64,000 nucleotides of DNA from a virus (taxonomy: Duplodnaviria > Caudoviricetes), in the IMG/VR virus record IMGVR_UViG_3300037400_002156, positions 1 to 64,000 of that record, one strand, 5' to 3'. Under the pieces are notes generated by a model that worked only from the letters and a program-made list of their open reading frames with translations, searched no databases and was not told the origin of the DNA. The position numbers were made by a program, and so were the translations under genes. Positions 33,400 to 54,946 of this stretch are shown here, in pieces (the first letter of the stretch is position 1; each line of letters begins with the position of its first letter).

Positions 33400-34065
33400 T
33401 TAAAACATATCTGAATCATTTATCATTGATGATAAATTACATTTCTTTTTATTAGGTATTTTCTTAGTAGTACTAATAACAGATGTCTTACTATAATTAA
33501 AGAATGTAATCTGATCTGGTGATATACATAGTGGAGTACTTTCAACTGTATAAGGCTTACCTGATGAAGTTTCAATAAAAGTTGAATTTGATTTTCTTAT
33601 GTATATATTATCTTTATAGAATTTCTTTGTACAATCTGCTATCACAAATATAAGCTTACAATCATCTGATGATATACACATATTTATAAATGAATTAATG
33701 TAATCATTAATATTTGGAGAATTGTCATAACCAAGAAGTTTAATTACTACAACCTGGCTAATTAGTGCCTGAGGGTGCACTATTGACTTTGTATTACATC
33801 TCATTGCATGCCATGATTGATATATCTTTGAATCGTCTAGTACAGTTGGAGCAACTAATTTCTTTGATAGCATATATGTTAATGGGTATGCACACCAGTT
33901 AGACGCATCAATGTCACCAATTGCTACAATCTTGTTGCTAGGCTCTAGACTCAGAAGTAAATCTTTATCTTCATCAGATAATCTACGAATATTACTCGTA
34001 AGCAGATCTCTATATAAAATTGCAATTCTATTTATATTAAATGACTTATTATTTTCTATAGTCAT
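33400..34065 (-). CDS. Hypothetical protein (possibly replication accessory)
   Basis: 221 aa, GGAG RBS, directly upstream of polA. Confidence 0.7.
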   Translation of the reverse strand: MTIENNKSFNINRIAILYRDLLTSNIRRLSDEDKDLLLSLEPSNKIVAIGDIDASNWCAYPLTYMLSKKLVAPTVLDDSKIYQSWHAMRCNTKSIVHPQALISQVVVIKLLGYDNSPNINDYINSFINMCISSDDCKLIFVIADCTKKFYKDNIYIRKSNSTFIETSSGKPYTVESTPLCISPDQITFFNYSKTSVISTTKKIPNKKKCNLSSMINDSDMF

Positions 34066-34111
34066 CTTTCTAACTCCAATGATGTCGTAATTATTATATT
34101 ATATAATTACA

Positions 34112-34240
34112 TCATTGATTTATTACATTTAACTTTATCTTTGAATATCCGCACGTAAAAGTAGTATAATCATGAGATGTGTATGAATGTTCTAAAACAT
34201 CACTATAGTCTAAAGAGTGCATATAGTTGTAATTTACATA
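34112..34240 (-). pseudogene. C-terminal remnant of an interrupted homing endonuclease gene
   Basis: Frame YVNYNYMHSLDYSDVLEHSYTSHDYTTFTCGYSKIKLNVINQ* aligns with C-terminus of 53864..54946 (AINLNYPP...EKAFY...VYTCGYA). Confidence 0.6.
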
Positions 34241-35814
34241 GAAATATATTCTAAATAAATTACTTCGTAAATAAATTTACTGGCGTACTACACACCTCTA
34301 TCCCATATTCTATAAAGACGTTTGGGATTTCTTTTCTAAGAATATTTAGCGCACCATTTAGATCAGCATTTATTAATCTGCCATCGTAAGATCTAAATAG
34401 TCCTCGTTTAATTCGTTTTCCTTTATATGTTTCATGTTTGCGAATTTCTTCATCGTCTAAAAATGAGCATTTACTAGTGTATGATTCTTCACGAACTACA
34501 ACTTCAATGCCTTCAAGTTTAGATTTATAAGTAACCATGTGAATAAACATATTGAAAGGAATTTGAACAAATTTCTGATTGTTTGATTTACCTAAATCAA
34601 TGTCTTGTTTCCAATTCTTATTGTGTCCTATTACGATTTTAGACACGTCATTAGAAACTAAATGATTCACCAATTTTCGGCTTGCTTTGTGGATGTAGTC
34701 TTTTACTTTGTTATTTCTTTTCTGCGTTAGCTTTCTAATTTTGTCAGCATTTACATTTCTGTTCTTGCAAAGACCCTGCTTTGATTTTAGATTAGCTAAT
34801 TCTTTATTATAGAATTGGTTGATTGACTTCAAAGGCCTGCCACTTACTAATATCGGAGCAATTTTATTTCCTCCGACTGCTGCCAAGTTATTAAGACCAA
34901 TGTCGATTCCTACATAATTACCGTTGTCATAATGCTGCTTCTCATCAACGTTATATATAACTTCAATAATAAATAATGCGTTCTTAGGTATGACTCTTAT
35001 CTGTCTAACATCTGTATGAATCAACTTTATTCTGCTACTACAACCACTAAGTTTCAGATAGCCAAGTTTCAATTCTTTTCCTGATATAGCCTGATTTGTA
35101 AACGTTAGCATATATCTCGAATTCTTTTCTAGGTATCTAGGTATTGAAACTTTGTGATTTACTTTCTTTGACTTTAAAGAAGCAAAGAATGATCTGAAAT
35201 TCTGGTCTACCTGTTTAACAACCCACTGCGCAACTTTTGCTGGTAAAGAAGTATAGTCGATTTGTTTTTCTTTTGTGAGTTGACCGACATTAGCGTAATA
35301 ATTCAGATATTCTTTTGTATTGAAGTAATGCTGTCGTATTCTATAAAGTGCTTGATTATACAGATTCTTAGACAGAAAGCACATCTGATCTAATTCGCTA
35401 TATAGCGAATTAGACTTCTTTATGATATGTCTCTCTGTTAATAACATGTTAAGATTCCTTTTCGATATCTTTAATAGCCTATTTTACTTTTAACTTTAAT
35501 CTCTTACTTTTACGAAGACCGTAAATTCTTGCAGAGAAGCAATGTATTATTAAGATTAAGTCCTGTGTAATGTCTTCATCTTCTTCTTTAGCCTCGTTAA
35601 TTACTTCGATTCTATTACCTGTTAATAATTGAATGTAATTAAAGCCAAAACGTGTTAGACGATCTTTGTGTTCTACTATGATTTTATCGTACTTGTCATC
35701 TTTTAGAATTTTTGAAAGTTGTTTACGATTGTCATTTAAACCAGAACCAAATTCTTTCACAACTTGTTTTATCTTGTACCCTTTAGCGATGGCATATGCC
35801 TCTAATCGCTTTGC
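34223..35814 (-). mobile_element. 5'-truncated IS607-family element (tnpA remnant + tnpB)
   Basis: IS607 TnpA C-terminal half followed by tnpB; left end replaced by HEG sequence; right boundary approximate. Confidence 0.75.
34260..35447 (-). CDS. tnpB: TnpB RNA-guided endonuclease (rearranged RuvC-II clade)
   Basis: SKNLYN, RuvC-I GIDIGLNN, VIGHNKNW at the canonical Glu position with displaced EESYTSKC, RuvC-III NADLNGALNI. Confidence 0.93.
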   Translation of the reverse strand: MLLTERHIIKKSNSLYSELDQMCFLSKNLYNQALYRIRQHYFNTKEYLNYYANVGQLTKEKQIDYTSLPAKVAQWVVKQVDQNFRSFFASLKSKKVNHKVSIPRYLEKNSRYMLTFTNQAISGKELKLGYLKLSGCSSRIKLIHTDVRQIRVIPKNALFIIEVIYNVDEKQHYDNGNYVGIDIGLNNLAAVGGNKIAPILVSGRPLKSINQFYNKELANLKSKQGLCKNRNVNADKIRKLTQKRNNKVKDYIHKASRKLVNHLVSNDVSKIVIGHNKNWKQDIDLGKSNNQKFVQIPFNMFIHMVTYKSKLEGIEVVVREESYTSKCSFLDDEEIRKHETYKGKRIKRGLFRSYDGRLINADLNGALNILRKEIPNVFIEYGIEVCSTPVNLFTK

Positions 35815-36015
35815 AGTAGATGATCGGCAACCACATGATTTTGTGTGACCACGAATAACACGTTTGTATGGAATATCTTTTACATTACCACATGTACACT
35901 TACATCTGAATACAACAAAATTATTATCGTCTCTAAGTACATCTAGCACTTCTAACGAATCGAATATTTTGCCAATGTATTCACTTTTAAGAATGTCTAT
36001 ATTAATTCTGTTCAT
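35479..36015 (-). CDS. Chimeric ORF: HEG zinc-binding N-terminus fused to IS607 TnpA serine-recombinase C-terminal half (no catalytic Ser motif)
   Basis: aa 1-66 YIGKIF..L.V...CKCTCG...GHTKSCGC, then AKRLEAYA...EFGSGLN...VEHKDRLTRFGF...FSARIYG; YARVS and HTH absent. Confidence 0.8.
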   Translation of the reverse strand: MNRINIDILKSEYIGKIFDSLEVLDVLRDDNNFVVFRCKCTCGNVKDIPYKRVIRGHTKSCGCRSSTAKRLEAYAIAKGYKIKQVVKEFGSGLNDNRKQLSKILKDDKYDKIIVEHKDRLTRFGFNYIQLLTGNRIEVINEAKEEDEDITQDLILIIHCFSARIYGLRKSKRLKLKVK

Positions 36016-36042: not shown

Positions 36043-36082
36043 AAATCCCTATTGCATATATAAATATACACAATAGGGATTT
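36043..36082 (-). terminator. Terminator hairpin after sheath gene
   Basis: aaatccctattg-N16-caatagggattt. Confidence 0.6.
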
Positions 36083-36103: not shown

Positions 36104-38518
36104 TTAGGTGTTAGCCATAGCCTCTTCAATAGTAGTTGAAGATGAGTAAATTACGTAAGATAAATCAAATATTTCCGCCGACTGGTAGAAAATCACACGA
36201 ATAATTCCATTTATCTTGCGGTTCGCAATCTCCTCACGTGATGTTGTATCTTCACCCATTTGAACCATATACTCGCTAAGAGCATTTGACGAAACTAATG
36301 GATCAAGAATATACTGAGAAACATATGTCTTCCACTTATCCCATAGAACAAGACTATTAATAGAGAACTTAAGTGTCTCTGTGTATTCATCAATTTCGCT
36401 ACGAATCCAAACAAGCAAGCGAGCAATATGAGCTGCATTAAGATCTGTATATCCAGCGTTTAGAGTTTCATTTCCGAAAATCTGAACACCTCTTGTGCCA
36501 GTGTCCCAAATAGGATTAATTCTATACTGTACTAACTGATCTCTTTCAAGCTTTGTTTTTGGATTCTGTAAAACTTCTACTGTATCTGGAAGCACGCCAC
36601 CTTGATCTCCAGCTACTGGGAACTGAACGCCTCGATTTCGCCATGAAGTTAGAATATTATTCATTACAAGATTTGTAGGAGCGACTTTAACTTTTACATT
36701 ACGCGCTGAGCCATTTACAATCTTTGTGCATGTCATCTCTAACCATGACCAGTACATCTCTAAATAGAAACTCTGTGTTGCGTAATCTTCAGTATCTGTT
36801 TGACCATATTCCCAAAGATCTACAAAGTCACCTTGTGAAGCAACCCAATTACATGCATCTGTCATCTCCATTGGAGTTAAATCGCCATATTCTTTATAGT
36901 ATGGAGTTGAAAGAATCACCGTAGTGTCTTTGCGCTCACTCGCTATTTCTTTCATATAATAATGAAGTGTACGACGATCTTCGTAGTTTAAAGCATATAA
37001 ACCTGTAAGAGGATCGCTACTATTAGAACGTGTATTTACTGGACAAACAAGATCTGCCATTAAACGGCCATTATATTTCTTGTCTTTGTACTGGTTTAAT
37101 GCATTCACGTAATTAGTAACATTAACTACAAATGAAGGATTGCTTATAGTAACAGGACCGATAACTGGGAATGGGCTTGGTGATAATCCACCATCAGCAA
37201 CTGAATAATCATGTAAAATTTTAACTGCTAATGAATTTAAACCATCTTCTTTTACTGCACATGCATTTGCTGTAGAAGGATCCATTAGTTCAAATCTAAT
37301 TACTGTACCTAGAGCAGAGTTTAAATTATTTACAATTGACTGATTTGTTACTGTAGGATCACTAATCTTAATTCTTGAAGAGGCAAGAACACTATTGTTA
37401 ACATCTTTAACCGTTACATTAAGATAATATACATTTAATGAGTATGGCTTTGTTTTAGTTAGTTCACAATTAAATTGTAAGTCTTCAGCCATTGAAGAGT
37501 ATGCTACCATACAATGCTCAGCACGAGCTGCCGATTTAACTACTAAGATGTGACCACTAGTGAGAGCATCACGTAAAGTAACGGTAACAGACCAAGTACC
37601 GTCTAAATCCTGAGACCACACTACGTTTTCTGGCTCAACTGGTGTTTCTACTGTTGGGCTATCTGAATCATTTACATCTGCAAATGATGTAATTACATAA
37701 CGAGATGAAAGTTTTGTAGCGGTATATTTCTTTGTATCTGTAGAATCTACAGCAAGAGGAATATTCTCTACACCCCATGACTCATCGATAGCGCCTTCAA
37801 CTGAAATATTAGTAGGTTCTGGAATTACACCACTGTCAGGTAAATTTAGTGTAATAACTAAGTCAAATGTACTAATACCATTTACGAAGTGTTCTTCGCA
37901 CTTATATGTAAAATAGTCTGTGTAATCAATATTGCCTACATACGCCGCTGGCATATCCGCTGAGTTAGTTATTACATCGTCTGGCTCACCTTCAACTTCA
38001 CTTTTAACTGTAAATGGTAAAGTATAGAATGAGCTAGCTTCTAAGTCTGGTGTTAAAGAGTCTGTATTAGTAGATCCTGTAACTCGCTTAATGACATATT
38101 TATTACGTAAACCAGTAATTTTCCACTCGCCACTCTCTGGTACTGGATGATGATCACTCAGGTCTTCTTCTGTATCTCTAAGCTGATCATTTACAAATGG
38201 AAATTCATATACACCTGCATCACCTGAATCAACTTTTGCAACCCAACAAGTTCCACCATTTGCAACTAACTGCATAATACTATAAAGATCAACATATTTC
38301 TCAGGGTCAATACGAGGATCACCAAAGTTAGCAATTAGAGTATCAACATCACGAACTAAAATTGGATCATATTGATTTGTTACTGAGTTTTTCTGCACTC
38401 TTGAAATCGGAGTAATGCATGCAAATAAGCCATTAAATGAGGCTATATTTGGCACTACTGATTCGTCTTTTACACGTGATTTTACATGCGCACTCTCACG
38501 ACTATCTATTTTTATCAT
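36104..38518 (-). CDS. Tail sheath protein (major)
   Basis: L..FGDP N-terminus; ERDQLVQYRINPI...GVQIFGNETL...ARLL C-terminal sheath domain; large beta insertions. Confidence 0.9.
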   Translation of the reverse strand: MIKIDSRESAHVKSRVKDESVVPNIASFNGLFACITPISRVQKNSVTNQYDPILVRDVDTLIANFGDPRIDPEKYVDLYSIMQLVANGGTCWVAKVDSGDAGVYEFPFVNDQLRDTEEDLSDHHPVPESGEWKITGLRNKYVIKRVTGSTNTDSLTPDLEASSFYTLPFTVKSEVEGEPDDVITNSADMPAAYVGNIDYTDYFTYKCEEHFVNGISTFDLVITLNLPDSGVIPEPTNISVEGAIDESWGVENIPLAVDSTDTKKYTATKLSSRYVITSFADVNDSDSPTVETPVEPENVVWSQDLDGTWSVTVTLRDALTSGHILVVKSAARAEHCMVAYSSMAEDLQFNCELTKTKPYSLNVYYLNVTVKDVNNSVLASSRIKISDPTVTNQSIVNNLNSALGTVIRFELMDPSTANACAVKEDGLNSLAVKILHDYSVADGGLSPSPFPVIGPVTISNPSFVVNVTNYVNALNQYKDKKYNGRLMADLVCPVNTRSNSSDPLTGLYALNYEDRRTLHYYMKEIASERKDTTVILSTPYYKEYGDLTPMEMTDACNWVASQGDFVDLWEYGQTDTEDYATQSFYLEMYWSWLEMTCTKIVNGSARNVKVKVAPTNLVMNNILTSWRNRGVQFPVAGDQGGVLPDTVEVLQNPKTKLERDQLVQYRINPIWDTGTRGVQIFGNETLNAGYTDLNAAHIARLLVWIRSEIDEYTETLKFSINSLVLWDKWKTYVSQYILDPLVSSNALSEYMVQMGEDTTSREEIANRKINGIIRVIFYQSAEIFDLSYVIYSSSTTIEEAMANT

Positions 38519-53863: not shown

Positions 53864-54946
53864 ATGAAACTAAAAGACATTTCAGAATTAAGAGATTTAT
53901 ACGTCGGTAAGACTTTTAACAAACTAACTATTACAGATATCTTAAGATCAGGTAAGAATTGGGTATGCAGATGTAAGTGCGAGTGCGGAGTAGAATGTGA
54001 AAAGAATCTAACAAAAGTTATTAGCGGACATACTAAAACTTGTGGCGGACACGTACATAAACTTGAGCAAGCGTCAAGACTGTCTCAACTATATAAAGAG
54101 CATCCAGAAATAGGTAAACGTGCTGGAGAAAAAATATCTTTATGGTATAAAGACGAAGAGAATAAGCCCGTTATACAAGAACGCTCTGATAATCATAGAA
54201 AATGGTGGGATGAGCACGGTGAACAACGAGAGTTTCAGTCCGATCGTATGATTAAAAAGTTTCTCAAAAATAGACAGTCTGCTGACTATTCAAATCTTAT
54301 ACAGATTATACATCCTAAGTATGTAGACGATCTATTATCAGGAAAGATTAAAAGAGACAATATAGTTGAAACGAAATGCCCATTATGCAATAAATACGGT
54401 GAGCATAAGTTTCACGACTTATTCCGTATAGCAAGTAACTCACTTAAGTATAGTCATGCTCTATTGTGTAGTGACTGTCAAAATGAAAAGACATCACATT
54501 ACGAAATAGAAATAGCAAATTATATAAATTCTTTTTGTAATAACGAGTGTATTAAGAATGACAGGTCAGTACTAAACGGAAAAGAGCTTGATTTATATTA
54601 TCCAGAAAAGAAAATTGCAATTGAATTTAATGGTGATTATTGGCATTCAGACGCGCATAAGTCTGATGATTATCACTATAACAAGTTCATAGAATGTTAT
54701 AATAGAGGAATTACACTTATAAGCATTTTTGAAAGTGAGTGGAATTCTAACAAAGATGCTATTAAAAGCTACATTAAAGACTTATTCAATGGCATAGAAA
54801 ATAAGCTATCATATAAGACAGACTCAGCTATTAATTTAAACTATCCGCCAATTAAGTTTGACATATCTCGATACTACGTTGAGAAAGCTTTCTACAGTAT
54901 AGGACATAGAAAAGTATATACTTGTGGATACGCTGTTGAGAACTAA
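53864..54946 (+). CDS. Free-standing homing endonuclease (zinc ribbons + Vsr/DUF559-like PD-(D/E)XK domain)
   Basis: CRCKCECG...GHTKTCG, CPLC/CSDC, ELDLYYPEKKIAIEFNGDYWH, IFESEW; antisense, just downstream of capsid gene. Confidence 0.8.
   Translation: MKLKDISELRDLYVGKTFNKLTITDILRSGKNWVCRCKCECGVECEKNLTKVISGHTKTCGGHVHKLEQASRLSQLYKEHPEIGKRAGEKISLWYKDEENKPVIQERSDNHRKWWDEHGEQREFQSDRMIKKFLKNRQSADYSNLIQIIHPKYVDDLLSGKIKRDNIVETKCPLCNKYGEHKFHDLFRIASNSLKYSHALLCSDCQNEKTSHYEIEIANYINSFCNNECIKNDRSVLNGKELDLYYPEKKIAIEFNGDYWHSDAHKSDDYHYNKFIECYNRGITLISIFESEWNSNKDAIKSYIKDLFNGIENKLSYKTDSAINLNYPPIKFDISRYYVEKAFYSIGHRKVYTCGYAVEN

Follow-up and report, generated by a model that had tools for sequence, protein, structure and literature searches.

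Intact tnpB of an AT-core IS607-like element in the remains of a putative homing endonuclease gene of a phage

The elements most similar to the one described here are CboIStron (PMC10690162) and ISFba1 (PMC11061315), in both of which a serine TnpA precedes TnpB, the right end gives rise to a structured RNA, the flank serves as guide and a short core is common to both junctions. The TAM of CboIStron equals the target of its transposase (PMC10690162), and IS607 elements have been described as possessing a GG core and G-rich TAMs (PMC13565253, PMC11061315). Spread driven by TnpB and independent of TnpA has been shown in plasmids (PMC11870625); for co-infecting phages, homing by means of TnpB has been proposed, non-restorative homing in phages being treated as theoretical (PMC13565253). 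About 75% of tnpB genes have no nearby tnpA (PMC10055086).

The present locus shares the listed properties with CboIStron and ISFba1 but has a TAT core and a WGTAT target instead of GG and TGGG, AGGAG or GAGGG, and it contains no intron. This copy, moreover, is without left end and active TnpA and forms a fusion with a host gene. As in the Cbo element, a single G sets the target motif apart from the end of the element (GTAT versus CTAT here, TGGG versus TCGG in Cbo). Like non-autonomous tnpB-only insertion sequences it retains an intact tnpB and a right end without a working transposase; in those sequences, however, both ends are as a rule preserved and mobilisation in trans is possible, whereas here a deletion that extends into the host gene has taken away the left end. 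The likeness to TnpB gene drive and non-restorative homing (PMC11870625, PMC13565253) lies in the proposed cutting of the element-free allele of a competing replicon. Yet gene drive has been demonstrated with IS605 in plasmids whose empty sites are identical, while here it is a proposal from sequence and no matching empty allele was found. The host gene, in turn, resembles EDxHD or Vsr-like homing endonucleases (I-Bth0305I, PMC3239194; Hef-type) in its profile matches (phrog_3339 and, weakly, 3R3P), in being optional at the locus and in occurring in several copies in the genome; in contrast to these it is free-standing with zinc modules, its homing activity is putative, and the nuclease domain is deleted in the copy studied here.

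The stretch of DNA analysed (the window) comprises the first 64 kb of a virus record of 204,068 bases; the contig is contained in SRR12668996. The phage has no near named relative, its closest polA match in a named phage amounting to only about 25-29%, and in a further search tnpB alone gave matches. The locus is situated between a tail sheath gene (36104-38518), identified by PHROG sheath matches, and a conserved gene encoding 221 aa (33400-34065), all on the minus strand; a search with the sheath C-terminus matched no viral contig. From upstream to downstream the following features are found:

36043..36082, minus strand: self-inverted hairpin preceding the endonuclease start, with TGTATAT in its loop, kept in L067-L070
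36015-35479, minus strand: fusion ORF of 178 aa, residues 1-67 from the endonuclease N-terminus and 68-175 from an IS607 TnpA
35815..36015, minus strand: 5' remnant of a Vsr-like putative homing endonuclease gene of the free-standing type, comprising codons 1-67 with the first zinc module
35801..35814, minus strand: junction microhomology GCAAAGCGATTAGA, 14 nt, encoding AKRL, exact in allele L068 and in tnpA of L062
35449..35814, minus strand: C-terminal half of an IS607-type serine TnpA, without HTH and catalytic serine
34260..35447, minus strand: tnpB, an open frame of 395 aa (NF040570, 198 bits)
34223..34402, minus strand: predicted omegaRNA scaffold, which overlaps the 3' end of tnpB and stops with ...AACTAT at the right end of the IS, its 5' limit approximate
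34203..34222, minus strand: predicted guide, i.e. endonuclease 3' DNA forming the first bases outside the element, the role being taken from known TnpB biology
34112..34222, minus strand: 3' remnant of the endonuclease gene, an open frame with a C-terminal HMM match and a Y-x8-TCGYS C-terminus

A preliminary description of this DNA had recognised the zinc domain of an endonuclease N-terminus in frame with the C-terminal half of a TnpA devoid of HTH and catalytic motif, and profile as well as allele matches agree with it. Residues 1-67 of the fusion ORF match phrog_374, are similar to three full paralogues of the genome (44% to the gene at 53864) and are 79-96% identical to four proteins of 505-527 aa from related phages; compared with the syntenic allele L067/P0129, 186/201 nt and 64/67 aa of the segment 35815..36015 are identical. 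Residues 68-175 match NF033518 with 119 bits (cut-off 110), at profile positions 75-186 only, and are about 95% identical to intact TnpAs of 190 aa. These intact relatives contain an HTH and the catalytic motif YARTSS, both of which are absent from the fusion ORF. The TnpA remnant has acquired a premature TAG at 35481-35479 and the private missense changes S155L and R169K, which makes two missense changes and one premature stop versus seven private synonymous ones. No further tnpA is present anywhere in the genome. A second fusion accompanied by loss of the left end is seen at L061:687-1328, where an unrelated N-terminus replaces the HTH of a TnpA of the same clade (P0008) while YARTSS is kept.

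The genes of the four proteins of 505-527 aa, which contain two zinc modules, immediately follow the sheath gene and precede the orthologue of the 221-aa gene, and because of this shared position we regard them as the uninterrupted allele of the locus. Alignment to related phages provided both uninterrupted alleles and junctions. The endonuclease family matches phrog_3339 ‘homing endonuclease’ with an E value of 3e-27 and weakly the Vsr-like I-Bth0305I domain 3R3P (E 0.034); the Vsr-like catalytic domain is found in the intact alleles only and is deleted in the window copy. Across the distinct orthologous loci the gene is present at seven and absent at five, an optional presence which, as expected, would fit a free-standing gene with putative homing activity. 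Further full paralogues are located at 53864-54946 in the window and, outside of it, at G000 72604-73917 and 77106-78218. The first of these had been put forward as the gene matched by both outer pieces of the locus. While the family match stands, this gene was rejected as the direct ancestor, since it encodes a paralogue of 360 aa and the true ancestor is an allele of 505-527 aa with two zinc modules.

Among the syntenic alleles the N-termini are identical in 52-62 of 67 residues, the C-termini of distinct alleles in only 13-19 of 28, and even within this set the last 30 codons of the gene are hypervariable. At the 3' side of the locus the frame 34240-34112 is open and, contrary to the former assumption that it terminates at TFTCGYS, continues for nine codons beyond this motif. 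Its supposed resemblance to an endonuclease C-terminus proved correct for 34222-34115, which obtains 33.2 bits with an HMM built from 61 C-termini of the family, as opposed to 15.7 bits for the best of 5000 shuffles, other six-frame peptides of the genome, the three full paralogues aside, reaching no more than 9.9 bits. It does not apply to 34240-34223: the six codons reading YVNYNY are DNA of the IS right end and are kept in IS relatives at unrelated sites, so that their resemblance to the NLNY of the family is due to chance. The 3' remnant is identical to the syntenic alleles at 8-12 of 28 aa, and a protein search with the 3' frame, which is weak evidence, found no close allele. At the DNA level the surroundings of its end agree with L070 to 86% over 42 nt, and the 3' UTRs of L067 and L068 align as well. 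An imperfect hairpin 3' of the remnant (34078-34116 of the window), homologous to hairpins in L067 and L068, could bound the transcript containing the guide. An isolated C-terminal fragment of an endonuclease is present near 75.6 kb (G000 75730-75480, outside the window); decay of this family is common in the genome.

The boundaries of the inserted element follow from its relatives. With IS copies of 81-85% nucleotide identity, the match to the window starts at 35814 and stops at 34223-34221. The intact IS607-type relatives measure ~1.9 kb, show serine tnpA followed by tnpB in L056, L057 and L062, and encode a TnpA (P0007) which matches NF033518 with 171 bits. At all six independent insertion sites compared, the left junction reads WGTAT and the right one (C/T)TAT, with TAT common to both; hence the parent element has a short core common to both ends, and it is without target duplication. 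A left end at TAAAT was dropped in favour of GTAT once the six sites had been compared. As the canonical GG core and G-rich target of IS607 are replaced by this target and this end at 6/6 sites, we file the element as an AT-core IS607-like variant and not as a canonical IS607 member. An independent insertion of the same IS at L161:1446-4550 (also L162, L163 and L165) resides in a paralogous endonuclease gene next to polA. Excising it in silico restores the frame to a normal C-terminus, which proves the element boundaries. Taken together, the limits of the match to the relatives, the six sites and L161 place the right end of the present copy at 34223 and the predicted guide at 34222-34203, in keeping with the earlier proposal of an end at AACTAT; this position is uncertain by about 2 nt because four of seven right flanks begin with AT. 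By analogy with CboIStron, the predicted TAM is WGTAT. The locus points to an IS607-like clade in gut-metagenome phages whose predicted motif is AT-rich, whereas the TnpBs of IS607 are reported to have G-rich ones; this clade offers a candidate compact nuclease. New here is an AT-core IS607-like element which is immobilised and fused to a homing gene.

Several minor observations concern the relatives of this element. The WGTAT target overlaps the TGTATAT motif enriched upstream of the ORFs of this phage (left junctions of L056, L057, L062, L071, L072 and L161), so that the element may have a preference for insertion into phage promoters; of the six sites, five are intergenic. At L071:3001-4764 an intact IS copy immediately precedes the orthologue of the 221-aa gene and is located downstream of another endonuclease of the family; it is a separate insertion in the same neighbourhood. 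Signs of decay are visible at L056:5575-6726, where a premature stop within the omegaRNA region shortens tnpB by 12 codons and tnpA contains a late frameshift.

In the window copy tnpB is intact, as had been stated: its 395-aa frame is open and the RuvC triad D182/E321/D362 is conserved with the relatives, five of which align without a gap. The relocated glutamate and the reduced zinc finger are found across the whole clade. Folding of the final 198 nt of the element gives a z value of -5.3, and compensatory changes occur in 10 of 50 pairs among six sequences compared with 0-2 in slid controls, the structure having been derived from the same six related sequences. Such a folded, covarying right end, fixed in its position by six relatives, fits a putative omegaRNA overlapping the 3' end of tnpB. 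The Rfam scan revealed neither RAGATH-18 nor another relevant family but only sub-threshold chance matches.

The junction within the fusion ORF bears the trace of its origin. In frame, GCAAAGCGATTAGA reads AKRL both in the endonuclease of L068 and in the TnpA of L062. A join at this microhomology eliminates ~1.5 kb altogether. Of these, about 1224 nt belong to the endonuclease gene, whose codons 68-475 with the nuclease motifs at 386-406 are lost, and about 306 nt to the IS, where they comprise left end, HTH and catalytic serine. The suggestion of an IS607 insertion into the endonuclease gene, followed by a deletion of nuclease, IS left end and active site of TnpA, is upheld by the orthologous alleles, the intact IS relatives and the 14-nt microhomology. 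The anatomy of the locus is confirmed, and its history, as reconstructed from sequence comparison, is supported. According to this comparison, a 1.9-kb IS607-type element inserted about 30 codons before the end of the optional endonuclease gene behind the sheath gene. Recombination at the 14-nt microhomology then deleted ~1.22 kb of the endonuclease gene and ~0.31 kb of the IS, fusing the frames and taking away the nuclease domain, the target motif, the IS left end, the HTH and the catalytic serine. With its left end gone, the element cannot excise, even if TnpA is provided in trans. The locus represents a well-resolved case of how a transposase-less TnpB cassette originates in phages, namely by a hit on a dispensable selfish gene followed by a microhomology deletion.

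As the tnpA remnant contains only two missense changes and one stop, the deletion must be recent and nearly the entire tnpA branch predates it. The three changes allow a rough estimate of the divergence since the deletion of ~0.004-0.012 per site, for which the neutral probability of a tnpB without nonsense change is 0.76-0.43. An intact tnpB is therefore no evidence of selection. Pairwise dN/dS, about 0.09 for tnpB and about 0.02 for tnpA, was rejected as a test of selection after the deletion since dS ranges from 0.9 to saturation and mostly predates this event.

We consider it probable that the locus is the result of a recent two-step accident, a roughly neutral wreck with a stranded TnpB. 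Presumably, tnpB and the omegaRNA would still be transcribed from the old endonuclease promoter and probably provide an active nuclease whose sole target would be the exact ancestral allele with its hypervariable 3' end, an allele which is rare or unsampled. The cassette would be an effectively neutral passenger heading to decay, with at most narrow, incidental homing. Running counter to this reading, tnpA has acquired a stop whereas tnpB and the omegaRNA have remained intact, an asymmetry in the direction that selection for TnpB would produce. Furthermore, a matching allele must have existed at the time of the insertion, and the sampling of sister phages (12 loci) is thin.

Cutting of the direct ancestral allele by TnpB is possible, and it underlies the foremost alternative, which we regard as unlikely: an active but narrow RNA-guided homing, by which TnpB would cut this allele (WGTAT plus guide) in co-infecting sister phages and the cassette would be copied by recombination, the retained 5' and 3' gene ends serving as homology arms. 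The endonuclease allele would be parasitised but its function not replaced. The intact RuvC triad and omegaRNA and the homology arms on both sides would suit such a process, as would the plasmid and homing studies cited at the outset (PMC11870625, PMC13565253). Having lost its own motif, the donor would be immune; indeed, no WGTAT-anchored match of the guide above 12/16 exists in its own genome, so that the cassette is immune to itself. The cassette is, furthermore, located behind the old endonuclease promoter motif. The hairpin 36043..36082 which contains this motif, and which today precedes the fusion gene and tnpB, probably acts as a terminator/promoter element. TGTATAT occurs within 120 nt upstream of 40 of 197 ORFs (20%) as against 5% of random windows, while the counts of a sigma-70 promoter scan are at chance level.

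What argues against narrow homing is foremost the absent target. In register, the guide matches the six intact alleles at merely 4-9 of 20 positions, none of them with WGTAT upstream, since the last 30 codons of the gene are hypervariable; the best match besides the guide itself, in 2.7 Mb scanned with both strands counted, is 16/20 and without the motif. The notion that TnpB could cut intact alleles of co-infecting relatives thus finds no target among those sampled. Nor is there a second carrier: the cassette occurs at 0/12 orthologous loci, a thin sampling with most at 63-70% protein identity, the fusion protein forms a singleton cluster, the TnpB cluster holds only two gene calls, both from this phage, and neither the right end nor the guide gave an exact match when viral contigs were searched. 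In addition, about 1.2 kb of non-homologous DNA adjoins the cut. In the sister insertion L161, finally, tnpA is intact whereas tnpB is frameshifted near codon 157 in all four contigs covering it. Considering the absent target, the single carrier and this loss of tnpB, we favour the recent neutral wreck over narrow active homing. The host gene of the L161 insertion also has an in-frame stop near codon 64; its protein is found on 12 contigs.

Still less probable, in our opinion, is the far-reaching version of homing, in which the immobilised cassette, driven by the endonuclease promoter, would be selected as a hyperparasite cutting intact alleles of sister phages, copying itself in by recombination and displacing the protein-guided homing gene. 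The five orthologous loci without endonuclease offer no target, and TnpB therefore cannot take over the role of the endonuclease in invading such alleles. With these alleles, a single carrier and an intact tnpB that is expected under neutrality, the idea of an RNA-guided homing element replacing a protein-guided one, with which the preliminary description had headed the locus, is unsupported. If homing were true, the locus would be a natural example of a protein-guided homing gene falling prey to an RNA-guided element and would afford a test of non-restorative homing in phages.

We deem it improbable that TnpB is dead or silent, owing to lost left-end transcription signals or private substitutions, and the whole locus a pseudo-element. 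The IS promoter region is indeed deleted, but the endonuclease promoter motif and the ribosome-binding site of tnpB remain. TnpB exhibits seven private changes at otherwise invariant columns (K104R, K157A, I201V, N202S, D225G, N284D and C336R), a number within the range of 5-13 found for comparable relatives; C336R was rejected as a sign of damage because position 336 varies in the wider family, R included. With 20 synonymous and 11 nonsynonymous changes, moreover, the tnpB branch has been under purifying selection.

That the outer pieces derive from separate members of the family, arranged in tandem or recombined, or that the junction is an assembly chimera can hardly be maintained: although the 3' piece shares only 8-12/28 aa with the syntenic alleles as opposed to 79-96% for the 5' piece, those alleles differ almost as much among themselves at the C-terminus, the 3' UTR aligns with the same locus in L067, L068 and L070, and a separate Logan assembly, which may be from the same sample, has the same 178/395/221-aa gene order.

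Apart from the locus, a DnaB orthologue at L147:1581-4298 contains an in-frame insertion of ~410 aa at residue 200, possibly an intein.
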